The notes under the pieces were generated by a model. That model saw only the letters and a list, made by a program, of their open reading frames with translations. It did not search any database and was not told where the DNA came from. 10,573 nt of DNA from Bacteroidales bacterium (GTDB lineage Bacteria > Bacteroidota > Bacteroidia > Bacteroidales > F082), in assembly GCA_045613185.1 (NCBI GenBank), contig JAZLAL010000136.1:1-10573 (forward strand), written 5' to 3'. Below, piece after piece: positions 1 to 10,573 of the stretch. The position numbers and the translations under genes were made by a program. Within the stretch, counting starts at the first letter, position 1. Each line of letters starts with the position of its first letter.

Positions 1-179
1 ATGTGGCTGTGCACTCTCCGTGCATGTACCTCATACTGTTCAAGTGTGGGGCATTGTATCGTTTATTTCAGCTTAGGTCTTTCCACAACCTTCTAACAAA
101 TAAACGTGAAGCAACTCCACACTTTCTTTTTTTTATAAACATTATAATCCTTTGGAGTTGGGGTGTTTGTAAAAATGAT

Positions 180-1280
180 ATGAACATAGTAGATGTTGTC
201 AAATGGGAGGTAAACACAAAAGAATTAGTTCATAAGTTTGAATCAGATTCATTGCGTCTTGGTTCGCAACTTGTTGTTTATCCAAGTCAGACTGCCTTAT
301 TCGTCAAAGGAGGTGTTATCGCTGATGAGTTTCAAAGCGGCACATACACAATAAAATCCGAAAACATTCCGATTCTTGGAAAACTGATAAACATACCTTT
401 CAATAGTGAAAGTCCTTTCAAAGCTGAGGTTTGGTTTGTCAATCAAATATCTAAACTTGACTTAGCATGGGGAACGCCACAACCAATACAAATTGAAGAT
501 CCAAAATACAATATAATTGTACCAATTAGAGCACATGGACAATATGGTATTCGTATAAGTCAGCCAAGATTATTTTTGGAAAGTTTAATTGGCAACATGC
601 ACACTTTTGGACAGGAACAAATAGAACATTATTTCAAAGGAAGAATAATAACCAATCTTAACACTATATTGACCCAACAAATCATAGAGAAAAAAGTTTC
701 TGTTCTTGATATAAATACACAATTGGTATTATTATCAGAAGAATGTAATAATCTGTTAAATATCCAATTGCAAAAATATGGAATAAGCATTATAGACTTC
801 TCTATAATGTCAATAACAGTCCCACAAGATGATGAAAGTGTTATTAAACTTAAAAATGCAAAAGATATCGCAGCTAGATTGAATATTACAGGACGAGATG
901 TATATCAAATGGAACGTTCATTTGACATTCTTGAAAAAGCTGCAGCCAATGAGGGTGTAGGAGGACAGATGATGGGAATGGGTGTAGGATTAGGTGCAGG
1001 GGTTAGCGTTGGAACTACTATAGGAAATATCGCAGGACAAATGATTAACACAACCCCACCACCATTACCTTCACAGGATGTTAAAAAATATTACCTTTAT
1101 ATAAATGGAGAGCAGATACCAAATCTATCATTACAACAAATAGAAGAGTATGTAATAAATGGGGCGGTAACTCACGAAACACTCGCATGGACAATCGGCA
1201 TGTCTGAATGGGCAAAAATATCTGACATACCTGAATTACGCAATCTATTAGGCGGTATTACGCCACCACCTATCAAATAA
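180..1280 (+). CDS. SPFH/Band-7 superfamily protein (Band_7_1-like) with Gly/Met-rich linker and C-terminal DUF4339 (GYF-like) domain
   Basis: The frame is open from nt 3, but the first ATG is at 180 (MNIVDVVKWEV...), and the translation of 3-179 is low-complexity with no coding look. The N-terminal ~260 aa carry the SPFH/Band_7_1 pattern (VxWE...G..L.V.P.Q.A.F.KGG...F..G.Y.I.SENIP.L, AEVWFVN...WGT). The linker is EGVGGQMMGMGVGLGAGVSVGTTIGNIAGQM followed by TTPPPLP. The C-terminal KYYLYINGEQIPNLSLQQIEEYVINGAVTHETLAWTIGMSEWAKISDIPELRNLL matches the DUF4339 consensus (W..GM..W....D.PEL). The stop TAA is at 1278-1280. Confidence 0.75.
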   Translation: MNIVDVVKWEVNTKELVHKFESDSLRLGSQLVVYPSQTALFVKGGVIADEFQSGTYTIKSENIPILGKLINIPFNSESPFKAEVWFVNQISKLDLAWGTPQPIQIEDPKYNIIVPIRAHGQYGIRISQPRLFLESLIGNMHTFGQEQIEHYFKGRIITNLNTILTQQIIEKKVSVLDINTQLVLLSEECNNLLNIQLQKYGISIIDFSIMSITVPQDDESVIKLKNAKDIAARLNITGRDVYQMERSFDILEKAAANEGVGGQMMGMGVGLGAGVSVGTTIGNIAGQMINTTPPPLPSQDVKKYYLYINGEQIPNLSLQQIEEYVINGAVTHETLAWTIGMSEWAKISDIPELRNLLGGITPPPIK

Positions 1281-1286
1281 TAAATT

Positions 1287-1634
1287 ATGAAGGCACTGAC
1301 TTTAAAAATTGGCTTAATAGTACTGATAAGTAATATTATATTTGGCATTCTAATCTCCAAGTATGCTGTATTTAATATATATTTGAATAGTGTGATTATT
1401 GCTATTACAACCGCAATGATTATGTTTGTTAATAGCACAAAGATAAAATCTGCCTTTAAATTTTCATTGTCATTTATATTCATTTTTGGCGGACTTGTTG
1501 AATTTATATGTGGATTATTTTCTAAAAGTTCTATATATGATAATTGGGCAATCCTATTGTGTACAATAATCACTATATTGGAAATAACACTTTTAACTAC
1601 AATAGTATCAATGTCTAAAAACAACAAATCATAA
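1287..1634 (+). CDS. small integral membrane protein (about 4 predicted TM helices)
   Basis: The ATG at 1287 lies 7 nt after the upstream stop, and the TAA at 1632-1634 lies 5 nt before the next ATG, which implies an operon. The translation has four ~20-aa hydrophobic stretches (LKIGLIVLISNIIFGILIS, IYLNSVIIAITTAMIMFV, FKFSLSFIFIFGGLVEFICGLF, WAILLCTIITILEITLLTTIVS). This AT-rich DNA also gives a 151-aa ORF on the opposite strand, so coding status rests on the operon context. Confidence 0.55.
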   Translation: MKALTLKIGLIVLISNIIFGILISKYAVFNIYLNSVIIAITTAMIMFVNSTKIKSAFKFSLSFIFIFGGLVEFICGLFSKSSIYDNWAILLCTIITILEITLLTTIVSMSKNNKS

Positions 1635-1639
1635 TAATT

Positions 1640-2695
1640 ATGAAATCATTAACGTGTGAAATGTGTGGAAGCACCAATCTTATTAAAAATGAAGGTGTCT
1701 TTGTATGTCAGTCTTGCGGAACAAAATATTCTGTAGAAGAAGCAAAAAAAATGATGATAGAAGGAACTGTTAATGTTGAAGGTACTATAAAAATTGACAA
1801 TTCTAATGAGTTACAGAATTTATACGAAATAGCAAGACGAGCAAAAATAACTGATAATATAGAACAAGCAGAAAAGTATTATGACAAAATTCTTGTTTGT
1901 GATCCAAACAGTTGGGAGGCTAATTTCTATACCGTTTATTACAAAGCGATGTCGTGCAAAATAGCAGGTATAGCCAATGCAGGTAACACATTAACACTTT
2001 GCTTGCCCACTGTGATTTATTTGGTGAAGACATATATACCTGAATCGGAACAACATGATATTATTGAAGAAATTTATGGTAAGATTATCAATATCGCTTC
2101 TATGCTTAGTGAAGCTGCAATGAATCATTATTTTGATATTGACATAAGTATCAGGGAAAGATTCGCACAGGATTATGTTAACAACATGGCTTCAGTTACA
2201 TTTTTGGTATATTCTTTAGGAAATATTATTGATGAAAATTGGGGAGCAAAAGAACAGTTTAACTCTGTAGCTTTATGGGATGCTGGTATTGGTTATCAAA
2301 ATAAATATTTTAGATACTTATTAGACCCTTCGCCGACTATAAAATCTATGGAAACGTATGCTGATAAAATAAAAGCATATAATCCAGAATATAAACTTCC
2401 TGAATTAAAAAACACATCATCAGGTGGAGGTTGTTATGTTGCCACTTCCATATATGGTTCTTACGATTGTCCTGAAGTATGGACATTGAGACGATACAGA
2501 GATTATACTCTTGCAGAAAAATGGTATGGAAGAACTTTTATTAAGATATATTACGCAATAAGTCCTACACTTGTCAATTTGTTTGGTGAAACAAGATTAT
2601 TTAAAAAAATATGTAAAGGTAAACTTGACAAATTTGTCAAAAAACTTCAAAGTAACGGGGTGTCTTCAAACCCATATAACGACAGGAATTGGTGA
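1640..2695 (+). CDS. zinc-ribbon protein (CxxC-x13-CxxC) with TPR-like helical region and a conserved C-terminal Cys-containing module
   Basis: The ATG is at 1640. The N-terminus CEMCGSTNLIKNEGVFVCQSCGTKY is a 4-Cys zinc ribbon. The middle region is helical and TPR-like (NLYEIARRAKITDNIEQAEKYYDKILVCDPNSWEANFY). The C-terminus is SSGGGCYVATSIYGSYDCPEVWTLRRYRDYTLAEKWYGRTFIKIYYAISPTLVNLFG, a Cys..ATxxYGS...CPEV..LRxYRD motif followed by a hydrophobic stretch. The stop TGA is at 2693-2695. Confidence 0.75.
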   Translation: MKSLTCEMCGSTNLIKNEGVFVCQSCGTKYSVEEAKKMMIEGTVNVEGTIKIDNSNELQNLYEIARRAKITDNIEQAEKYYDKILVCDPNSWEANFYTVYYKAMSCKIAGIANAGNTLTLCLPTVIYLVKTYIPESEQHDIIEEIYGKIINIASMLSEAAMNHYFDIDISIRERFAQDYVNNMASVTFLVYSLGNIIDENWGAKEQFNSVALWDAGIGYQNKYFRYLLDPSPTIKSMETYADKIKAYNPEYKLPELKNTSSGGGCYVATSIYGSYDCPEVWTLRRYRDYTLAEKWYGRTFIKIYYAISPTLVNLFGETRLFKKICKGKLDKFVKKLQSNGVSSNPYNDRNW

Positions 2696-2782
2696 AACTT
2701 ATCATTTATACCTAAATAACAAGAATGCCATGTTATGATATCATTTTTTTAAAACAAAAATGGCACAAAACACATATATTAC

Positions 2783-2820
2783 AAACAAAGACTCCCGAAA
2801 AATTTCGGGAGTCTTTGTTT
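2783..2820. terminator. bidirectional intrinsic terminator (perfect 18-bp inverted repeat, GC core GACTCCCG/CGGGAGTC)
   Basis: aaacaaagactcccgaaa (2783-2800) is the exact reverse complement of tttcgggagtctttgttt (2803-2820), with loop aa. This gives an A-run then a T-run on both strands. It sits between the convergent + cassette (ends 2695) and the - strand gene whose stop overlaps the arm at 2820-2822. Confidence 0.7.
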
Positions 2821-3929
2821 CACCCTATCATTCTGCTGTCATCAACCTTAAATTTATACATTCCTGTTTCATACGCAATTCGTCCAAGAACAATCCATTT
2901 GTTCATACCTTTTTCTTCCGCCCATACAGTATAGACTTTTTGAATATCTATAGGATTCATACGTACTTTAGGGGCATCCTTCCATTCTTTATTAGGTATC
3001 AACGCATTTGCTGCATACTCGTTTGCTTCTCGTTCTTCAGATCTTTCATTGTCATATTCAGAAATGCTTAACTTGTAATTTTGTTTTGAAGCATCTTTAT
3101 AATGTTTGTATATATGGCCAATCTCATGCATCAACGCAAAAGCAAAACTGTCAATCTTGTTATATCTTCTCGTTAAAATAATATATGGCATTCCATTTTC
3201 AAAATACGAATATCCATCAACCGAAGCCTTGTCTATTTTCTCTATTATACAAAAAGCTATGCCATATTTTGACAATATATTTTTCACTATAGTTTCTGTG
3301 TTTTGGTTTTCATGCAAGGCCTTGCTTAATTCGCTTACCAACATCGGCTCATCATCTCTTACAAATGATCCTTCAACAACAAGCGTCTTTGCTTTTGTTT
3401 CAGCCAATATCTTCCACGTCATCAGCATTCGCATATCTTGCCCTGTCTTCGCTGATTTCTTAAATTTACCAGCATATTCCAATTGCAACTCTGCTGGTTT
3501 AGGAAGTCCACAAATTTCTTTAAGACATCTAAGGTTTTCAACTGCAGATTCTGCCAACATCCCAAGTCTTTTAAGCAATATCTTCACATCAAACACCTCA
3601 TCATAAAGCTTCAATGCATTAAGTGCCTTTTGTTCCTCAACACTTTTTTGCTCTATGACGCTCATGTCATATTCGTATTTAACCTGCATATTCACTAATG
3701 AAATCGCAGAAATACCCAACGTTTCTTCAATCTTAGTAGCAATAAATTTAGTCAGCGTACGCTTTCCTTTTATAAGTTCGCAAACATGACACCTTTGCAT
3801 ACCTATCATTTCAGCAAATTCCTTCTGAGAAATCCCTCTTTCTTCCAACTCATACTTCAATATAGTACCAGGATGAGTCGCTATCCAAGTCGTAGTATTT
3901 TCATTTCTTGTTGCCATAATGATCTTCAT
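2820..3929 (-). CDS. HigA-type HTH (Xre family) antitoxin domain fused to ImmA/IrrE-family (COG2856, Peptidase_M78-like) zinc metallopeptidase domain
   Basis: The N-terminal THPGTILKYELEERGISQKEFAEMIGMQRCHVCELIKGKRTLT matches the HigA antidote HTH pattern (HPGEIL...G.SQ..LA..LGV....I..I..G.R.IT). The C-terminal half has the HEXXH motif in ALMHEIGHIYKH, typical of the ImmA/IrrE peptidase family. ATG starts are possible at 3929 or 3917. The stop is TGA at 2820-2822. It overlaps the upstream higB-like gene by 17-29 nt. Confidence 0.85.
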   Translation of the reverse strand: MKIIMATRNENTTTWIATHPGTILKYELEERGISQKEFAEMIGMQRCHVCELIKGKRTLTKFIATKIEETLGISAISLVNMQVKYEYDMSVIEQKSVEEQKALNALKLYDEVFDVKILLKRLGMLAESAVENLRCLKEICGLPKPAELQLEYAGKFKKSAKTGQDMRMLMTWKILAETKAKTLVVEGSFVRDDEPMLVSELSKALHENQNTETIVKNILSKYGIAFCIIEKIDKASVDGYSYFENGMPYIILTRRYNKIDSFAFALMHEIGHIYKHYKDASKQNYKLSISEYDNERSEEREANEYAANALIPNKEWKDAPKVRMNPIDIQKVYTVWAEEKGMNKWIVLGRIAYETGMYKFKVDDSRMIG

Positions 3930-4224
3930 TTATTTCAATTAGTGAAATCTGTATTCCATCTTCTGTCTCTTTGAACAGCAGCCGCTCAACTCTACCATTG
4001 ATTATTCTTACAGAACTCAACGAAATATATTTCAATTGTTCATAATGTAAAAAACTAAAATCTTTTAACTTAGACACATGCTCCAGAGAACAAAATAAGT
4101 TATATATATGCGTAAGTTTTGTTACGAACTTTTTATCACGAGCAAACTTCTTATATTTTCCCTTATTCTTACCTTTAAAAATAAGTTCTCTCAAATCATC
4201 ATCAAGTATTTCTACCTTCAACAT
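3901..4224 (-). CDS. higB: HigB-like (RelE/ParE superfamily, plasmid-maintenance killer) toxin
   Basis: The C-terminus FLHYEQLKYISLSSVRIINGRVERLLFKETEDGIQISLIEINEDHYG fits the HigB-like_toxin pattern (LH.L.GD..G.WS.RI...WRI.F.......I..IDYH). It sits upstream of, and overlaps, a HigA-type HTH gene. The first in-frame ATG is at 4224; the maximal ORF begins with TTG at 4233. The stop is TGA at 3901-3903. Confidence 0.75.
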   Translation of the reverse strand: MLKVEILDDDLRELIFKGKNKGKYKKFARDKKFVTKLTHIYNLFCSLEHVSKLKDFSFLHYEQLKYISLSSVRIINGRVERLLFKETEDGIQISLIEINEDHYGNKK

Positions 4225-4377
4225 AGATTCCAATAAAATGTTTTTGATTCTGGTGCAAAGTTAAAAATAAATTCCCAATAACATGGAACTTTTTGTTAGT
4301 ATTTTTTAATTACTATTATATTTTCACAAATAAAAGTCTTTTCTACAAATCGACAAAAGACCAATCTATTTTTTTCC

Positions 4378-4385
4378 TAAATTTG
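4378..4385 (+). promoter_or_regulatory. candidate Bacteroidota sigma-A -7 element (TAAATTTG = TAnnTTTG) upstream of rlmN
   Basis: This is an exact match to the Bacteroides-type -7 consensus TAnnTTTG, about 80 nt upstream of the rlmN ATG. I did not find a convincing -33 TTTG. Confidence 0.3.
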
Positions 4386-4465
4386 CACACTTCTCAACGA
4401 AGTTTTTACTGGACAATGACTGTTGTCTGTCGTCCATTGTCTGTTGACCTATAAAAATATAAATC

Positions 4466-5479
4466 ATGAAAGCATTACTCGGTTTAACCTTAGCAGAAAT
4501 ACAGGAAATCGTCAATCAATATGGATTGCCTAAGTTCACAGCCAAACAATTGACTGAATGGCTCTACAAAAAACACACTGGCAGCTTCGATGAAATGACA
4601 AACCTCTCTAAAGCAACACGTCAGCTTCTCTCCGAAAATTATACTACCGGCTACCGTAACTACGAAACCGTACAAGAATCGAAAGACGGAACTAAGAAAT
4701 ATCTCTTCCCTGGCGCAGATAATTTCATCGAATCTGCATATATCCCTGATAAAGAACGTGCTACATTATGCGTCTCTTCTCAAGTGGGCTGCAAAATGAA
4801 CTGCCTCTTCTGTCAGACTGGCAAACAGGGTTTCCAAGAGAATCTTCCTGCTAGCGATATCCTGAACCAAATACTCAACCTTCCTGAATACGAGAAACTT
4901 ACAAACTACGTATTCATGGGAATGGGCGAACCGATGAACAACTACGACAACCTCATGCGCACGCTCAACGTGATGACATCCGACTGGGGTCTCGCCATGA
5001 GTCCAACTCGTATCACAGTGTCGACAGTAGGCGTGATACCTTATATGAAACGTTTCCTCGACGAGTCGAAATGCAACCTCGCTGTCAGCCTCCACTCTCC
5101 TTTCCACGACGAAAGAATGAAAATCATGCCTGTGGAAAAAGCTTATCCAATTCGCGAAGTCATCCACGCTATCCGTCAGCACGACTGGAGCGGACAACGC
5201 CGCGTATTCTTCGAATATATCGTGTTCAAAGGTCTCAACGACACTTCCGACCATATCAAAGAACTCGCAAGACAACTCGGCAGCTTGCGTTGTAAAGTCA
5301 ACCTCATCCGTTTCCACAGCATCCCTGGCATCAACCTTCAAAGTCCGACGATGGACGATATGGAACGCTTCCGCGACAGACTCAACGACAAAGGCATCAT
5401 CGCAACAATCAGAGCATCACGCGGTCAAGACATCGACGCCGCCTGCGGATTGCTATCAACGAAAAATAAATTAGGTTAA
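4466..5479 (+). CDS. rlmN: 23S rRNA (adenine2503-C2)-methyltransferase / tRNA m2A37 methyltransferase RlmN (radical SAM)
   Basis: The length is 337 aa. The radical-SAM CxxxCxxC appears as CKMNCLFCQTG. The protein has the RlmN-type N-terminal (LTLAEIQEIVNQYGLPKFTAKQLTEWLY) and C-terminal (GQDIDAACGLL) signatures. It starts with a clean ATG and ends with TAA. Confidence 0.93.
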   Translation: MKALLGLTLAEIQEIVNQYGLPKFTAKQLTEWLYKKHTGSFDEMTNLSKATRQLLSENYTTGYRNYETVQESKDGTKKYLFPGADNFIESAYIPDKERATLCVSSQVGCKMNCLFCQTGKQGFQENLPASDILNQILNLPEYEKLTNYVFMGMGEPMNNYDNLMRTLNVMTSDWGLAMSPTRITVSTVGVIPYMKRFLDESKCNLAVSLHSPFHDERMKIMPVEKAYPIREVIHAIRQHDWSGQRRVFFEYIVFKGLNDTSDHIKELARQLGSLRCKVNLIRFHSIPGINLQSPTMDDMERFRDRLNDKGIIATIRASRGQDIDAACGLLSTKNKLG

Positions 5480-5486
5480 TATATTT

Positions 5487-5564
5487 GCTGTGAGCAATGG
5501 GCTATGAGCCGTGAGCAATCAAACAGAAATAACTGCTCATGGCTCACATCTCAAAGCTCATAGC
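5487..5564. repeat. long imperfect palindromic element with internal direct repeats (gtgagcaat x2; gctatgagc / gctcatagc inverted)
   Basis: gctatgagc (5501-5509) is the reverse complement of gctcatagc (5556-5564). tgagccgtgagca (5505-5517) pairs with tgctcatggctca (5536-5548) with one mismatch. gtgagcaat is directly repeated at 5490-5498 and 5511-5519. No T-run follows on the + strand. Confidence 0.5.
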
Positions 5565-5587
5565 AAAAAGTTCTTAGTTAATAAAAA

Positions 5588-6316
5588 ATGGCTGATAAAA
5601 ATTTCGTGCGTTCGATGTTCAACAACATCGCTCCTACTTACGACAAACTGAATCATATTCTTTCACTTAACATTGATAAGATTTGGAGGAAGAAAGCCGT
5701 CAAACGCATTTGTAAAAGTCTCAAAGACACAAAGACACAAAGTCTCAAAGTCCAAAACGCTCATGTTCTTGATGTGGCTTGTGGCACTGCTGATTCTAGC
5801 ATCGCTTTGGCAAAGGCCGGAATTCCTTTCGTGACGGGCGTCGACATTTCTGAAGGTATGATTAAAGTTGGTGAAGAAAAAATAAAATCTTTAAACCTCA
5901 ACAACATAAATCTCAAAGTTGAAGATTGCGAAAATCTCAGTTTCGAGGATAATAGTTTCGACTCTGCTTTTATCGCCTTCGGAATAAGAAATTTTGAAGA
6001 CAAGAAAAAAGGATTGAACGAGTTAAGACGCGTCTTGAAAGACAACGGACACCTTCTTATATTAGAACTTTCCGTCCCTCAAAATAAGATTTTGCTTTCA
6101 TTATACAAGTTGTATTTCCTTCATATTCTTCCTTTTATCGGCAAGAAAATCTCTGGCGACAGCAAGGCTTACACTTATCTTCCTAATTCTGTGATGAACT
6201 TTCCAAAACCAAAAGAGTTTATGGCAATAATGGAAGAATGTGGATTCAAGAACGTAAAGCAAAAAGCATTGACATTCGGACTTTGCAGAATTTACGAGGG
6301 ATTTGTGATTAGTTAG
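5588..6316 (+). CDS. menG: demethylmenaquinone / ubiquinone-menaquinone biosynthesis C-methyltransferase (UbiE/MenG family)
   Basis: The N-terminal VRSMFNNIAPTYDKLNHILSLNIDKIWRK matches the UbiE/MenG signature (F..IA..YD..N...S.G....W+). The SAM-binding motif is LDVACGTAD. The length is 242 aa. Confidence 0.88.
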   Translation: MADKNFVRSMFNNIAPTYDKLNHILSLNIDKIWRKKAVKRICKSLKDTKTQSLKVQNAHVLDVACGTADSSIALAKAGIPFVTGVDISEGMIKVGEEKIKSLNLNNINLKVEDCENLSFEDNSFDSAFIAFGIRNFEDKKKGLNELRRVLKDNGHLLILELSVPQNKILLSLYKLYFLHILPFIGKKISGDSKAYTYLPNSVMNFPKPKEFMAIMEECGFKNVKQKALTFGLCRIYEGFVIS

Positions 6317-6323
6317 GAGTTTG

Positions 6324-6483
6324 GAATTAGGAGTTAGGAGTTGTAGAGACGCGTCAATGTATCCTACAAAAATTAATACACATTGACACGTCTAATCAAT
6401 TAAGAATTAGGAATTAAGAGTTGTAGAGACGCGTCAATGTTTCCTGCAAAAATAAATACACATTGACACGTCTATCAAATTAG
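6324..6483. repeat. two tandem ~80-bp direct repeats, each with an internal 14-bp inverted repeat (agacgcgtcaatgt-N19-acattgacacgtct)
   Basis: Unit A (6324-6403) and unit B (6404-6483) are about 90% identical, and a partial third start (gaaattaagaatt) abuts the menA ATG. The inverted-repeat arms are 6347-6360/6380-6393 and 6427-6440/6460-6473. Each left arm carries the palindrome gacgcgtc. Together they fill the entire menG-menA intergenic space. Confidence 0.8.
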
Positions 6484-6495
6484 AAATTAAGAATT

Positions 6496-7377
6496 ATGTT
6501 AAAAAACATTAAGAAATGGTTTGAGATTATCAGGGCAAAGACTTTGTTAGTCTCGATGGCTTCTGTCATCATGGCGATTGCATTGGCTTTTGAAAATGGC
6601 GGAAACAATTGGTTGCCAGCGATTTTATGTTTGTTATTCGCCATATTAGCGCAGGCGACATCGAATGTTGTAAACGATTACGCCGATTACAAAACTGGCT
6701 GCGACAACGAAAACAGTCTCGGTCCTGACAGAAAACTCGTCAGCGGCGAAGTTAGTATCAAAACCATAAAAAGAGCCATAATATTATTAGTCTCAATTTG
6801 TTTCTTAGTCGGATTTAGTTTGATTTATTGGGGCGGATGGATTTTATTGCCATTCGGCTTATTGATAATCGCCGTTGCATTTTGTTATTCATTAGGTCCT
6901 ATTCCATTATCATACAACGCATTAGGCGATATCGCAGTGATATTATTCTTCGGAATTGTTCCAATAACATTCACCTATTATATATTAACAAAAGAAATAA
7001 ACTGGGGAATAATCGCGGCTGGTTTTTCTATGGGACTCGTTGTAGATGAATTACTTATAGTCAACAACGTACGTGACGAGATTGAAGACAAACAATTTAA
7101 TAAAGTCACTACGGTAGGAATTTTCGGAAGCAGATTCATGAAAAAAGTATTTTTATTTAATCCTTTGATTGCTTGCGGATTAGGATTTTATTTCATGAGA
7201 GGCATCTGCGATTACAAAACATGGGCAATCGCGATAATACCAATGCTGATTTATTCAGTCAGCGTTTATATCAAATTGGAAAAATATAAAGGCAAGCAAC
7301 TCAATGCATTATTAGGTCAGGCATCGCTGGAAGCATTGATTTTCGCCTTGACGGTCGTTGCCGTTACATTATTATAA
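6496..7377 (+). CDS. menA: 1,4-dihydroxy-2-naphthoate polyprenyltransferase (UbiA superfamily, MenA)
   Basis: The UbiA-family aspartate-rich motif is NVVNDYADYKTGCD. The 293-aa protein is polytopic, with at least 8 hydrophobic helices. The adjacent menG supports a menaquinone locus. Confidence 0.88.
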   Translation: MLKNIKKWFEIIRAKTLLVSMASVIMAIALAFENGGNNWLPAILCLLFAILAQATSNVVNDYADYKTGCDNENSLGPDRKLVSGEVSIKTIKRAIILLVSICFLVGFSLIYWGGWILLPFGLLIIAVAFCYSLGPIPLSYNALGDIAVILFFGIVPITFTYYILTKEINWGIIAAGFSMGLVVDELLIVNNVRDEIEDKQFNKVTTVGIFGSRFMKKVFLFNPLIACGLGFYFMRGICDYKTWAIAIIPMLIYSVSVYIKLEKYKGKQLNALLGQASLEALIFALTVVAVTLL

Positions 7378-7977
7378 TCATTCGTAAATCTCGGATTCTT
7401 CGACGAGATTATTAAGCAAAGCATAAACAGTAAGACCGGAAACAGATTTGATTCCGGTTTTTTTGACGATATTTTTACGGTGTGTTATGACAGTATGAAC
7501 AGAGATATTAAGCATATCTGATATATCTTTGTTTGTCATACCTTTAGCCACGCAAACCAAGACATCGACCTCACGATTTGACAAGTCGACGCTTTCGTTT
7601 TGAGCAGAAGTCTCTTCGTTATTATTCTGAAGGTTAAGTATTTTATTGATAACCTTCTGCTTATTGTCGTTAAGTTCTATTACTTCCTTAAAATTCTTTA
7701 AGATATTTTTGTCAACGTAAGAAGTTACAAGAGCCACGCGATTTATGTTAGGATAATTTTGCGTCATCTGCTTAGCAAAAGCATTAACCATATAACCCAG
7801 CATCATCGGATTGATTATCAACACATCTGGACTATGCACGATTATTTTATCCTGCAAATCTTCAATATTATCAACGACTGACGCAACAACAATTTGATTC
7901 ATATCATTGAAAAATGAAGACAATCCGTTGCTTATTATCGGCGAGCTTTCTGCTATGATTATCTTTGTGATTTTCAT
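7378..7977 (-). CDS. LuxR/FixJ-family transcriptional regulator with atypical (pseudo-)receiver domain
   Basis: The C-terminal LuxR/GerE HTH is LSNREVDVLVCVAKGMTNKDISDMLNISVHTVITHRKNIV. The N-terminal region has a CheY-like fold, but the acidic pair is ES (IIIAESSPI) and the phospho-acceptor position in VLIINPMM is Asn instead of Asp. The ATG is at 7977. Its stop TGA (7378-7380) directly abuts the menA stop (7375-7377). Confidence 0.85.
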   Translation of the reverse strand: MKITKIIIAESSPIISNGLSSFFNDMNQIVVASVVDNIEDLQDKIIVHSPDVLIINPMMLGYMVNAFAKQMTQNYPNINRVALVTSYVDKNILKNFKEVIELNDNKQKVINKILNLQNNNEETSAQNESVDLSNREVDVLVCVAKGMTNKDISDMLNISVHTVITHRKNIVKKTGIKSVSGLTVYALLNNLVEESEIYE

Positions 7978-7981
7978 AACA

Positions 7982-8632
7982 TTAACCCTCCATCATTTCA
8001 ACAAATGGAACAAGCACGCGTTCTTCCACCAAAGTATGACAGCTCAGGTCGGAAGTCACTTCCATAATGTCGAGAGATATTTCAATTCTCTCTTTTGGGA
8101 AGATATTTGCAGGAAGATATTTGATAAGGATATTCATCAAATCGTTGAGTTTATCTTCGATATTACTATGATTTGACTCAAATTCACGTATTGAGAAATT
8201 AGAAGTCAAAGCATTATTGCACAACGACTTAATATAAGGGAATACTATTTCTTCTTCGTATTTAAAGTGACTTTCCACCTCGTCTTTATATTCATTGAAG
8301 AAGCGATTTATCGTGTTGCCGAATCTAGCAGGACAAGCCTCGACGATACGTTTGAGATGTGATTCGATGTGAGGCAATCTCTCTTCGAGGTAATACTTAT
8401 GAGATTCTGAAAGATAAGACAATATCGCATTTGCATCTACAGACTTGATATCATCTTTGGTAGGAATAAATTCCGGATTGGAGTATAAGTTACAGATTAA
8501 CAGAAAGAACGACGGCGACACTTTAGCTTTTTCGCATACCTCTTTGACATTTTGGTCGCCGAAGCCGAGTTCAATTCCAAATCGTGACAGTGTGAGCATC
8601 AGCGTTGGATTTGAAATCACCAACTCAGCCAT
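7982..8632 (-). CDS. ScdA_N-like plus hemerythrin-like (RIC/YtfE-related) putative di-iron protein
   Basis: The N-terminal MAELVISNPTLMLTLSRFGIELGFGDQNVKEVCEKAKVS resembles the ScdA_N/DUF542 fold, but the GFGD site corresponds to the usual CCGG. The C-terminal half has His/Glu spacing typical of hemerythrin-like proteins (ESHKYYLEERLPHIESHLKRI, ESHFKYEEEI, HSNIEDKLNDL). The start is ambiguous: ATG at 8632 (chosen), ATG at 8671, or TTG at 8695. It lies 4 nt upstream of the regulator gene, implying an operon. Confidence 0.5.
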   Translation of the reverse strand: MAELVISNPTLMLTLSRFGIELGFGDQNVKEVCEKAKVSPSFFLLICNLYSNPEFIPTKDDIKSVDANAILSYLSESHKYYLEERLPHIESHLKRIVEACPARFGNTINRFFNEYKDEVESHFKYEEEIVFPYIKSLCNNALTSNFSIREFESNHSNIEDKLNDLMNILIKYLPANIFPKERIEISLDIMEVTSDLSCHTLVEERVLVPFVEMMEG

Positions 8633-8680
8633 TTTAGTATTTTCAGTAAAAAACAAGTTTGTATAGTTCATAATGTATAA

Positions 8681-8740
8681 TAAAAAATGAGTCAATATTC
8701 TATAAGCTAACGAGTAATACTTATAGACTTATTGACTCAT
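8681..8740 (-). terminator. nested hairpin followed by a T-run on the - strand; probable tRNA-Thr terminator
   Basis: atgagtcaata (8687-8697) is the reverse complement of tattgactcat (8730-8740). The inner pair is tctataag (8699-8706) / cttataga (8720-8727), with a 13-nt loop. On the - strand it is followed by TTTTTATTAT (the + strand 8681-8686 is taaaaa). Confidence 0.55.
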
Positions 8741-8761
8741 AGTCTTATAGTCTTTATTTTG

Positions 8762-8834
<73 letters not shown>

Positions 8835-8843
8835 TTTTTTGAG

Positions 8844-8894
8844 CTAAGAACCTAGAACTCTGAACCAAGAACCAGTTCTTAGTTCTTCGTTCAG
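8844..8894. repeat. imperfect palindrome built from GAAC/GTTC repeats between glnS and tRNA-Thr
   Basis: ctaagaac (8844-8851) is the reverse complement of gttcttag (8875-8882). ctgaaccaagaac (8860-8872) pairs with gttcttcgttcag (8882-8894) with one mismatch. No canonical U-tract follows on the - strand. Confidence 0.4.
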
Positions 8895-8940
8895 GGTCCT
8901 TTGTTCAAGATGCAAAGATACGATTTTTTCTTTTCAGAAA

Positions 8941-10573
8941 TTACTTCTGAGGAAGTTGGAATGTATCTTTTAATGTGACTGTTCTGTTAAATACCAGATG
9001 TTCTGCTGTGCTTTCTTTATCTGCTGTGAAGTAACCTATTCTTTGGAATTGGAAGTGGTCGAGAGGTTTTGCGTCGGCGAGGAATTTCTCTACATAGCAT
9101 TCCTTTCTAATTTCCAATGAGTTAGGATTTATCACTTGTTTCATTGCTTCAAGAGCCGAGCATTGTTGCTCTTCTTGGATAGCAGCGATGGCTTCGCGAG
9201 GATTTTCACTCATCCACAATCTGTCGTACAATCTCACTTCAGCTTGGATGCAATGATCGCAGCTCACCCAGTGCAATGTGCCTTTAACCTTACGGTTTGC
9301 GCCTGCCATACCGCTCTTTGTTTCTGGATCATATTCTGCATGAACCTCAACGATATTGCCGTTTTCGTCTTTCTTGCAATCTTTACATTTCACGATGTAA
9401 GCATTTTTCAAACGTACTTCGTTGCCTGGTGTCATGCGGAAATATTTCTTAGGAGCGTCTTCCATGAAGTCTTCGCGTTCAATCCACAATTCGCGAGAGA
9501 ATGTGATGTTGTGTACGCCTGAGTTTTCATCTTCAGGATTATTGACAGCTTCCATTTCTTCTGACTGGCCTTCTGGATAGTTTGTGATGACGAGTTTCAC
9601 TGGATTGATGACAGCAGAAACGCGTGTTGCGCGAGCATTCAAGTCTTCACGAATTGTGCTTTCCATAAGTGCGAAGTCGTTGACAGCTTCGTATGTTGTG
9701 TAACCGATTTTGTCGATCAATTTATGAATTGACTCTGGAGTGTAGCCACGACGACGGAAACCGCAGATAGTAGGCATTCGAGGGTCATCCCAGCCATTGA
9801 CGAGACCTTCTTTCACGAGGATGAGGAGGTTACGCTTGCTCAACAATGTATAGTTGAAGTTCAATTTATTGAATTCATACTGACGTGGACGATGGTCGTC
9901 GAGGTCTTTTTGTTCTTTAAGTTCGTCGATGAAATAATCATATAAAGGACGGTGAACAACGAACTCGAGAGTACATAAAGAATGAGTAACGCCTTCGAAA
10001 TAATCGCTTTCGCCGTGAGCGAAGTCATACATAGGATAAGCATACCATGTATTTCCTGTGCGGTGATGAGGAGTTTTCACCACGCGATAGATGATAGGGT
10101 CGCGGAAGTGCATATTTGAATTTGCCATATCGATCTTAGCGCGAAGCACCATCTTGCCTTCTTCGATCTCGCCTCTGTTCATCTTTTGGAAAAGTTCCAA
10201 TGACTCTTCAACAGGACGATTGCGATAAGGACTTTCGATGCCAGGAACAGTAGGAGTTCCTTTTTGAGCAGCGATTTCTTCAGAACTTTGCTCATCGATA
10301 TAAGCCTTGCCTTCTTTTATGAGACGAATAGCGAAATCCCAAAGTTGTTGAAAATAATCAGAAGCATAATACTCATTAGCCCATTGGAAACCAAGCCATT
10401 GAATATCTTCTTTAATAGAATCTACATATTCAACGTCTTCTTTTGTTGGATTTGTATCATCGAAACGAAGGTTACAAACACCGTTATATTTCTTTGCAAT
10501 ACCGAAATCCAAGCAGATAGCCTTAGCGTGACCAATGTGAAGATAACCATTTGGTTCTGGAGGGAAACGTGTT
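8941..10573 (-). CDS. glnS: glutamine--tRNA ligase (GlnS), 5' end truncated by window edge
   Basis: The translation continues to the window end. Past the listed Met, the reverse complement of the last bases encodes TRFPPEPNGYLHIGHAKAICLDFGIAKKY, the class I HIGH motif. The protein has strong GlnS/GlxRS hallmarks throughout (VLRAKIDMANSNMHFRDPIIYR, the MSK-type region VKGTLHWVS). The stop TAA is at 8941-8943. Confidence 0.93.
   Translation of the reverse strand, partial: TRFPPEPNGYLHIGHAKAICLDFGIAKKYNGVCNLRFDDTNPTKEDVEYVDSIKEDIQWLGFQWANEYYASDYFQQLWDFAIRLIKEGKAYIDEQSSEEIAAQKGTPTVPGIESPYRNRPVEESLELFQKMNRGEIEEGKMVLRAKIDMANSNMHFRDPIIYRVVKTPHHRTGNTWYAYPMYDFAHGESDYFEGVTHSLCTLEFVVHRPLYDYFIDELKEQKDLDDHRPRQYEFNKLNFNYTLLSKRNLLILVKEGLVNGWDDPRMPTICGFRRRGYTPESIHKLIDKIGYTTYEAVNDFALMESTIREDLNARATRVSAVINPVKLVITNYPEGQSEEMEAVNNPEDENSGVHNITFSRELWIEREDFMEDAPKKYFRMTPGNEVRLKNAYIVKCKDCKKDENGNIVEVHAEYDPETKSGMAGANRKVKGTLHWVSCDHCIQAEVRLYDRLWMSENPREAIAAIQEEQQCSALEAMKQVINPNSLEIRKECYVEKFLADAKPLDHFQFQRIGYFTADKESTAEHLVFNRTVTLKDTFQLPQK

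Follow-up and report, generated by a model that had tools for sequence, protein, structure and literature searches.

Soluble SPFH proteins of the YdjI type are known from one studied case, in which the protein brings PspA to the membrane. YdjI reaches the membrane only together with YdjG and YdjH, and it is needed for PspA foci to form (PMC8581546). YdjG has N-terminal zinc ribbons, an NTF2-like (YpeB-like) domain and a transmembrane (TM) segment, and YdjH is a TPM-domain membrane protein (PMC9239133, PMC11237479). Here we describe a three-gene cassette, G1-G2-G3, on a contig of a Bacteroidales bacterium (JAZLAL010000136.1, positions 1 to 10,573; this whole stretch of 10,573 nucleotides is referred to below as the window). 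The cassette shares its layout with ydjGHI: a soluble Band_7_1 SPFH protein is encoded alongside an integral membrane protein and a third protein that begins with a zinc ribbon (PMC8581546, PMC9239133, PMC11237479). Its parts are:

180-1280, + strand: G1, 366 amino acids (aa), soluble SPFH scaffold protein with Band_7_1 and C-terminal GYF_2 domains (Pfam, hydropathy, AlphaFold2 (AF2) model)
1287-1634, + strand: G2, 115 aa, integral membrane protein with four predicted TM helices (hydropathy, homologue conservation)
1640-2695, + strand: G3, 351 aa, zinc-ribbon, helical and CFI-box protein without a TM segment
2783-2820, no strand assigned: hairpin terminator with a 17-bp stem and 4-nt loop that closes the cassette and is common to the convergent gene

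G1 belongs to the same Pfam family as YdjI, likewise lacks a TM segment, and also has a low-complexity linker ahead of a small C-terminal adaptor domain. As judged by its sequence, it is a family-level homologue of YdjI. Unlike YdjI, however, it ends in GYF_2 and not in a zinc ribbon, and the gene order of the cassette is the reverse of that in pspA-ydjGHI. G2 is a bare four-TM protein without the TPM domain of YdjH (architecture as described in PMC11237479). G3 joins a zinc ribbon, a helical repeat and a CFI box without a TM segment, whereas YdjG has two zinc ribbons, an NTF2-like domain and a TM segment; these two are set apart by their described architectures. As neither G2 nor G3 is homologous to YdjH or YdjG, the cassette resembles YdjGHI in layout and is not a member of the PspA-YdjGHI system. 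An earlier note on this DNA had recognized in it the same domain set as in the pspA-ydjGHI operon. This holds for the Band_7_1 SPFH protein and the layout, but not for the relationship of the other two proteins to YdjH and YdjG, nor for a pspA gene nearby.

The earlier note had placed a possible pspA gene upstream of position 1. A public contig (L173) that is identical to the window over their overlap extends 1.6 kb further upstream, and prs and a tRNA gene are found there instead. The order in L173 (1-1780) is prs (- strand), tRNA-Leu(CAA) at 1034-1118, ~660 nt of non-coding DNA, and then G1. Within 10 kb of the cassette in three other loci (L176, L178 and L179), PspA_IM30 is not among the recorded Pfam families, although many of the called genes there have no entry. 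It is also absent from the 25 families displayed, of 108 found, among 124 proteins flanking cassettes. A phmmer search with approximate E. coli and B. subtilis PspA probes, which is a weak test, gave zero matches in ~160 cassette loci (L001-L168); the two probes detect each other at 1e-19. The lack of any pspA found in or near these ~160 loci is a further difference from pspA-ydjGHI. The non-coding DNA upstream of G1 also contains a short tandem repeat, TTCCTCAA (L173 ~1228-1262), and a Bacteroidetes-type -7 box, TAACTTTG (L173 1478-1485), that may be a candidate promoter of the cassette.

A conserved triplet with a variable third position

Gene-neighbourhood analysis confirmed that the triplet is conserved as a unit across genomes and is not a chance adjacency, in agreement with the earlier note. 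A scan anchored on G3, with one genome per species, yielded 80 loci: Bacteroidota contributed 29 and Bacillota ~50, and one carries a Saccharibacteria label. In 43 of these 80 genomes, from two phyla, G3 is immediately preceded by a Band_7_1 gene on the same strand. At ~15 of the 80 loci a G2 homologue stands between the SPFH gene and G3. With the exception of a Butyricicoccaceae bin and a Saccharibacteria bin, these loci bear Bacteroidota labels. A second survey was anchored on G1 in 80 metagenome loci, with counts restricted to loci that have room for G2 (66) or G3 (61). There, a G2 homologue detected with a local hidden Markov model (HMM) directly follows G1 in 65 of 66 loci, and G3 occupies the third position in 35 of 61.

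Where the third gene is not G3, it encodes a protein that is unrelated to G3 but has an N-terminal CxxC...CxxC zinc ribbon (25 of 26 loci, same strand). Thus, the layout of an SPFH-GYF_2 protein, a four-TM protein and an N-terminal zinc-ribbon protein occurs in 60 of 61 loci. Besides the ribbon, the only part that Pfam detects, most of the alternative third proteins have a variable body and end in a hydrophobic helix. At least six unrelated kinds of third protein accompany closely related G1-G2 pairs, with G3 the commonest. No fourth partner gene recurs among the 124 flanking proteins surveyed with Pfam. The G3 family comprises 6,192 clusters at E <= 0.001, with full-length relatives that are 50-65% identical, and there are ~1,650 G1-like clusters; both the G1-like and the ~6,200 G3-like clusters derive mostly from gut and rumen metagenomes. 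Literature searches on the CFI box, Band_7_1, DUF4339/GYF_2, COG4260 and SPFH with defence returned nothing on the G1-G2-G3 cassette.

The two bins outside Bacteroidota that encode G2, one labelled Candidatus Saccharibacteria (L078) and the other Butyricicoccaceae (L027), carry a Bacteroidota-type G1-G2-G3. Gene lengths, spacing and E-values of the L078 copy match those of Bacteroides muris (L073), Muribaculaceae (L075) and Odoribacter (L077). These copies probably reflect mis-binning or very recent transfer. Among isolates, Bacteroides muris NM69_E16B and Muribaculaceae Isolate-013 encode the cassette.

Clostridial versions of the cassette differ in their first two genes. The SPFH protein encoded beside G3 has Band_7_1 and a C-terminal double zinc ribbon, in which it is like YdjI; a few end in SHOCT instead. 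The middle gene (21 loci) encodes a protein with ~4 TM helices, mostly ~230 aa in length with a long helical C-terminal half, although some are ~140 aa and lack this half. No Pfam family matched it. The possibility that it is a homologue of G2 was rejected (hhalign probability 0.8%), and for this reason the two are treated as analogues. Adjoining the cassette in some Clostridial loci (L008 at 6102-7922, L038 and L042) are genes for large proteins with an N-terminal zinc ribbon, TPR and TIR_2. The zinc ribbon and first helix of these proteins resemble the N-terminus of G3 (BLASTP 8e-6).

The three genes in the window are separated by 6 nt (TAAATT) and 5 nt (TAATT); the earlier note had given 7 and 5 nt, of which only the second is correct. 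Its strong terminator was borne out. The hairpin at 2783-2820, which escaped a generic terminator scan, has a perfect 17-bp stem, a folding energy of -26.4 kcal/mol and z = -8.76 (folding computation). It begins 88 nt past the G3 stop and abuts the stop codon of the convergent gene. Other copies of the cassette are homologous to the window up to and including the hairpin and lose this homology directly beyond it, and thus we consider the terminator to be part of the cassette. In one copy (L171) the stem seems to be preserved by changes in both arms, as judged by eye and with the changes uncounted. The GC content is 35% for G1, 26% for G2 and 32% for G3, compared to 46% for rlmN and 42% for glnS in the same window. 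As ubiE, menA and a LuxR-type gene also have just 35-37% GC, the cassette is only moderately AT-rich for its genome. The description in the earlier note, of very AT-rich DNA, is thus too strong for the cassette.

Domain composition of the encoded proteins

The earlier note read G1 as an SPFH-like (Band_7_1) protein that ends in DUF4339, and Pfam profile searches support both parts of this identification. The features of G1 are:

246-860, + strand: SPFH (Band_7_1) domain, aa 23-227 (Pfam PF13421, 4.2e-47; predicted local distance difference test (pLDDT) score of the model mostly 80-94)
834-953, + strand: long helix that follows the SPFH domain, aa 219-258 (AF2 model with DSSP, Foldseek alignments)
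954-1088, + strand: Gly-rich disordered linker ending in proline-rich TPPPLP (pLDDT <50 at aa 239-299; conserved columns)
1089-1238, + strand: GYF_2 (DUF4339) domain, aa 304-353 (Pfam, 2.2e-11; profile and fold match to PDB 7z3c)
1239-1277, + strand: conserved C-terminal TPPPI motif, directly after GYF_2

The Pfam scores lie well above the gathering cutoffs, at 160.9 bits for PF13421 (cutoff 24) and 43.8 bits for GYF_2, PF14237 (cutoff 25.8). Kyte-Doolittle hydropathy predicts no TM segment. The AF2 monomer model (pLDDT 74) shows the SPFH domain at aa 6-213, with an alpha/beta fold, and the small GYF domain at aa 304-357. Foldseek matched this model to human stomatin, HflK/C, prohibitin, flotillin and QmcA-YbbJ cage subunits in the PDB (E 1e-8 to 1e-5, probability 1.0). 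The alignments to HflK/C, stomatin and flotillin cover 230-290 columns. In the model, the helix at aa 219-258 corresponds to the wall-forming coiled-coil helix of SPFH cages, with confident modelling only for its first ~20 residues. The GYF domain matches that of GltJ (PDB 7z3c) at 6e-8 by profile search, and also by Foldseek fold match. Conserved proline-rich motifs lie on either side of it, PPPxP on the N-terminal side and TPPPI at the C-terminus. In the alignment of G1 relatives P362 is invariant, P363 and P364 are nearly so, and columns of the G-rich linker are also conserved. Band_7_1 is present in all of the top 120 relatives of G1, and GYF_2 in all but two truncated or fused entries.

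Two variants of G1 were observed. One (L171 / P0121) equals the G1 of the window except for strongly diverged first ~100 residues, and its upstream DNA differs too; it looks like a recombination mosaic within the SPFH gene. The other, on a 1565-nt Logan contig from a close relative (P0080), has aa 1-255 of G1 fused in frame to G3 from ~aa 160 to the end, which amounts to deletion of the G1 tail, G2 and the G3 head. A natural variant and an assembly chimera are both possible.

G2 is the sole membrane-spanning component of the cassette, as judged by hydropathy of G1-G3. It has four Kyte-Doolittle TM segments, a pattern that is conserved in its homologues, and no Pfam family match. Public gene calls sometimes replace it with an antisense open reading frame (ORF) of 150 aa. 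However, the G2 ORF is kept in 69 related loci and the covering antisense ORF is open in only 18, and thus G2 is a genuine gene. Position 2 is the least variable codon position in its frame. A protein search with G2 gave just three close matches, so that a local HMM was needed to find homologues. We attribute the scarcity of matches to fast divergence combined with frequent omission by gene callers.

G3 is predicted to consist of three parts and, by Kyte-Doolittle hydropathy, has no TM segment:

1646-1729, + strand: predicted N-terminal C4 zinc ribbon, aa 3-30, with C6, C9, C23 and C26
1802-2380, + strand: all-helical repeat-like body, aa 55-247, the first three helices of which resemble a TPR or MIT unit
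2432-2635, + strand: CFI-box-CTERM domain, aa 265-332, with a basic amphipathic helix after it (NCBIfam NF041770)

The zinc-ribbon Pfam matches for aa 3-30 are all below cutoff. The four cysteines are invariant among 25 homologues and the AF2 model places strands at aa 14-17 and 20-23. Sequence and model together thus indicate a C4 zinc ribbon, with two conserved CxxC pairs in a beta-hairpin knuckle. The same model (pLDDT 77) has a low-confidence zinc ribbon, a confident helical body at aa 55-247, a disordered linker at 258-274 and three helices in the CFI-box region. The earlier note described a TPR-like region. A helical, repeat-like body is indeed modelled, but membership of the TPR family is not upheld, as there was no Pfam TPR match at E <= 0.1. 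In the search for a specific fold relative of the body, Foldseek returned only designed helical repeats and generic TPR-, MIT- and PCI-like matches, and a sequence search of G3 against the PDB gave nothing meaningful.

What had been described as an unusual C-terminal Cys module is a curated NCBIfam domain, CFI_box_CTERM (NF041770; 4.8e-20, 71.1 bits, cutoff 40). The CYVAT motif of G3, which begins at aa 265, fits the CFI-type motif C-[FY]-[IV]-A-T. The box is not a metal cluster, as the second cysteine of G3 (C277) is unconserved outside the G3 family. Its consensus is C-[FY]-[IV]-A-[ST]-x-x-Y-G ... L-R-x-[FYW]-R-D ... G-R-x-[FA]-I-x-x-Y-Y-x-x-S-P; a basic amphipathic helix comes next. We found no paper on this domain. 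In tblastn searches against plasmids, the CFI box alone occurs at the C-terminus of unrelated proteins of cytoplasmic type. On 5.2-kb plasmids of Acinetobacter lwoffii (L175) a TPR-like, CFI-box protein is encoded by the only gene without a replication or mobilisation function. On a Burkholderia plasmid (L174) the gene for a cold-shock-domain, zinc-ribbon and CFI-box protein has a Lar restriction-alleviation gene on one side and an integrase gene on the other. In these two plasmid examples the annotation shows no SPFH gene within ~2.5 kb of the CFI-box gene. Some alternative third-position proteins of the cassette have "SGC + hydrophobic helix" as their C-terminal end, similar to the "GGGCYVAT" with which the CFI box begins. 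From this likeness we infer that the CFI box may be a peripheral membrane-association module.

Genomic setting, mobility and rival explanations

The cassette is horizontally mobile, as the earlier note had thought possible. Copies from Bacteroidota and Bacillota (Clostridia) share >50% identity, which argues for horizontal transfer, and an identical G3 protein is followed by different genes in two loci (L169 and L172). One Clostridial cassette (L179) lies inside an element that also has a large serine recombinase, with a resolvase on one side of the cassette and a MobA_MobL relaxase on the other. Flanks are variable overall. Tyrosine and serine recombinases are the commonest families (Pfam, 124 flanking proteins), and other neighbours include relaxases, MNT/HEPN pairs and zinc ribbon-TPR-TIR proteins. 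In L081-L083, where G1 is 67% identical to that of the window, the gene for an 805-887-aa type IIG-like protein (N6_Mtase and specificity domain) ends 8 nt before G1 and is itself preceded by seven same-strand genes without a significant Pfam match. In a relative with a 98-kb scaffold (L176), the cassette occupies the same site as in the window (prs ... G1-G2-G3 -> rlmN -> ubiE) with no mobility genes, and another copy (L178) also lies among housekeeping genes. The region between prs/tRNA-Leu and rlmN is variable among relatives. The window contains no integrase and no att-like repeat of the tRNA-Leu 3' end, and from the missing repeat we see no evidence of a classical integrated element.

Convergent to the cassette in the window is a gene (2820-3929, - strand) that encodes HTH_3 and Peptidase_M78 domains. 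It matches PD-Lambda-2_B of PADLOC at 1.7e-38 and NCBIfam HigA at 2.2e-11, the latter below the model cutoff. An overlapping 110-aa ORF that precedes it (3901-4233, - strand) is HigB-like by eye, with no family match. As G3 is directly followed by rlmN in L176, without this pair, we interpret the pair as a separate insertion. Only this neighbouring HTH-M78 gene has a match in PADLOC-DB 2.0; no family of that database matched G1, G2 or G3 at E <= 0.1. None of the three matched PHROGs. Only five relatives of G3 were found in 2.9 M viral contigs, and thus the cassette is not a phage gene set. In phage and plasmid records G3 was not found at full length; the matches there are confined to the CFI box or to the N-terminal module. 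Unrelated to the cassette is a tRNA-Thr(CGT) gene (8761-8834, - strand; ARAGORN and Rfam) between a hemerythrin-like gene and glnS.

The reading that we favour, to which we give about even weight, is that the products of the cassette form a self-contained scaffold at the cytoplasmic side of the membrane, with a layout of the YdjI/YdjGHI type, that works without PspA. Several observations weigh against it. G3 occurs without an SPFH gene <=7 kb upstream or ~4 kb downstream in 37 of 80 genomes, and so has or can have an independent role. Beyond the SPFH domain and the small zinc ribbon there is no homology to YdjG or YdjH, and G2 is not detectably related to the Clostridial middle protein. Hydropathy predicts no TM segment at the CFI box, the membrane association of which was deduced from sequence. 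The frequent recombinase, relaxase, toxin-antitoxin, restriction-modification and TIR neighbours fit a role in conflict or defence at least as well as a housekeeping role.

The last point leads to a serious rival explanation, although on balance a doubtful one: that the cassette is an abortive-infection module directed against phages or mobile elements. In such a module the zinc-ribbon protein in the third position would be the sensor, and the SPFH ring would restrain G2 until, once triggered, G2 permeabilises the membrane. The patchy distribution across phyla at >50% identity and the identical G3 in different contexts are as expected for defence genes, as are the type IIG-like methylase, MNT/HEPN, zinc ribbon-TPR-TIR, recombinase and relaxase neighbours. 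The same applies to the adjoining PD-Lambda-2_B-like gene in the window, and to the likeness of the N-terminal module of G3 to that of the adjacent zinc ribbon-TPR-TIR protein. The exchange of the third gene beside an unchanging core is reminiscent of how sensors or effectors are swapped in defence systems, and a CFI-box protein is the only cargo of the 5.2-kb Acinetobacter plasmids. However, neither PADLOC nor PHROGs recognizes G1, G2 or G3, the cassette encodes no enzymatic effector domain, and many copies lie amid ordinary housekeeping genes with mostly miscellaneous flanking genes. The rarity of the cassette in viral contigs is neutral in this respect. The earlier note had also pointed to SPFH scaffolds in anti-phage operons; a limited literature search found no paper that places an SPFH protein in an anti-phage system, and direct support for a defence role was not obtained.

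Quality control of membrane proteins, with a G1 cage that encloses and regulates a protease or transporter encoded elsewhere and with G2 as an NfeD-like partner, seems unlikely to us. It would account for the match of G1 to the HflK/C-FtsH and QmcA-YbbJ cages, and for the pairing of G1 with G2 in 65 of 66 loci, as an SPFH gene usually comes with a single small membrane partner. Yet G2 has neither NfeD nor any soluble domain, G1 lacks the TM segment of HflK/C and QmcA, no protease gene recurs nearby, and the obligatory zinc-ribbon partner is left unexplained. Less probable again is that the cassette is an accessory of mobile elements, serving entry exclusion, maintenance or transfer support at the membrane as cargo rather than in host physiology. 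The setting of the L179 copy, the predominance of recombinases among flanking families and the position of the window copy downstream of tRNA-Leu in a variable region are consistent with this. Against it are the lack of an integrase and att repeat in the window, the retention of the cassette at the same chromosomal site in a related genome without mobility genes, and the further copy among housekeeping genes. That the genes are adjacent by coincidence or through an annotation artefact, and form no functional unit, is effectively refuted and highly improbable. G3 does also occur alone and gene callers often miss G2 and call the antisense ORF instead, but order and strand are conserved in 43 of 80 and 65 of 66 independent loci in two phyla. 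In addition, only 5-6 nt separate the genes, and the boundary of homology falls at the single terminator.

Proposed mechanism and comparison with known systems

For the favoured reading of a membrane scaffold independent of PspA, the following mechanism can be proposed. G1, which has no anchor of its own, may form a ring or cage on the membrane, as its SPFH fold suggests, and G2 would tether it there by analogy with the role of YdjH for YdjI. The third protein may dock onto this G1/G2 platform through its N-terminal zinc ribbon. The variable body of that protein and its membrane-seeking C-terminus (a CFI box with its basic amphipathic helix, or a TM helix) could then represent a client or adaptor that the platform organises. 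The GYF tail of G1 may bind proline-rich segments, either the PPP motifs of G1 itself or those of a partner, and so cross-link or gate the assembly. The cassette encodes no enzymatic domain. Its output would probably be the organisation or protection of membrane patches under envelope stress. More tentatively, G1 and G2 could be an invariant membrane platform into which different third proteins plug. The zinc ribbon would be the docking tag common to all of these, and their variable bodies would be sensors or effectors that can be exchanged for one another. The cassette would then represent a new SPFH-based system for conflict, defence or stress sensing that has spread horizontally through gut and rumen Bacteroidota and Clostridia.

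The cassette shows that scaffolds of the YdjI kind are widespread without PspA. It offers a compact, three-protein model for how SPFH proteins without an anchor are recruited and for what they organise, and a first functional handle on two orphan domains, the bacterial GYF_2 and CFI-box-CTERM. If the third slot is indeed a sensor or effector slot, these genes would constitute a new family of membrane-based conflict systems.

Among other described systems, the SPFH-NfeD pairs and HflK/C cages (QmcA-YbbJ, HflK/C-FtsH, stomatin, flotillin, prohibitin) share with the cassette the SPFH fold, the predicted wall helix that follows it and the tight association with one small membrane protein, here G2. 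In contrast to these systems, G1 has no TM or hairpin anchor, G2 lacks an NfeD/OB domain (no NfeD, PF01957, match for G2 or G3 at E <= 0.1), the zinc-ribbon partner is obligatory, and no associated protease is encoded nearby.

A second point of comparison is the zinc ribbon-linker-GYF switch of Myxococcus GltJ, the GYF domain of which binds a proline-rich region of AglZ; ~44% of bacterial GYF proteins pair with a zinc ribbon (PMC11135422). The GYF_2 domain of G1 matches that of GltJ by profile and fold, and in both cases a GYF domain and a zinc ribbon are found together where a membrane complex faces the cytoplasm (PMC11135422). In the cassette, however, the two are on separate proteins, GYF is C-terminal to an SPFH domain, and a connection with gliding motility or with MglA/MglB is lacking. 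The CFI-box plasmid protein of Acinetobacter, like G3, joins a TPR-like helical region to a CFI box. G3 differs from other CFI-box proteins in its N-terminal zinc ribbon and second conserved cysteine. Overall, the cassette is a variant of the SPFH scaffold operons with an unexpected, modular third slot.

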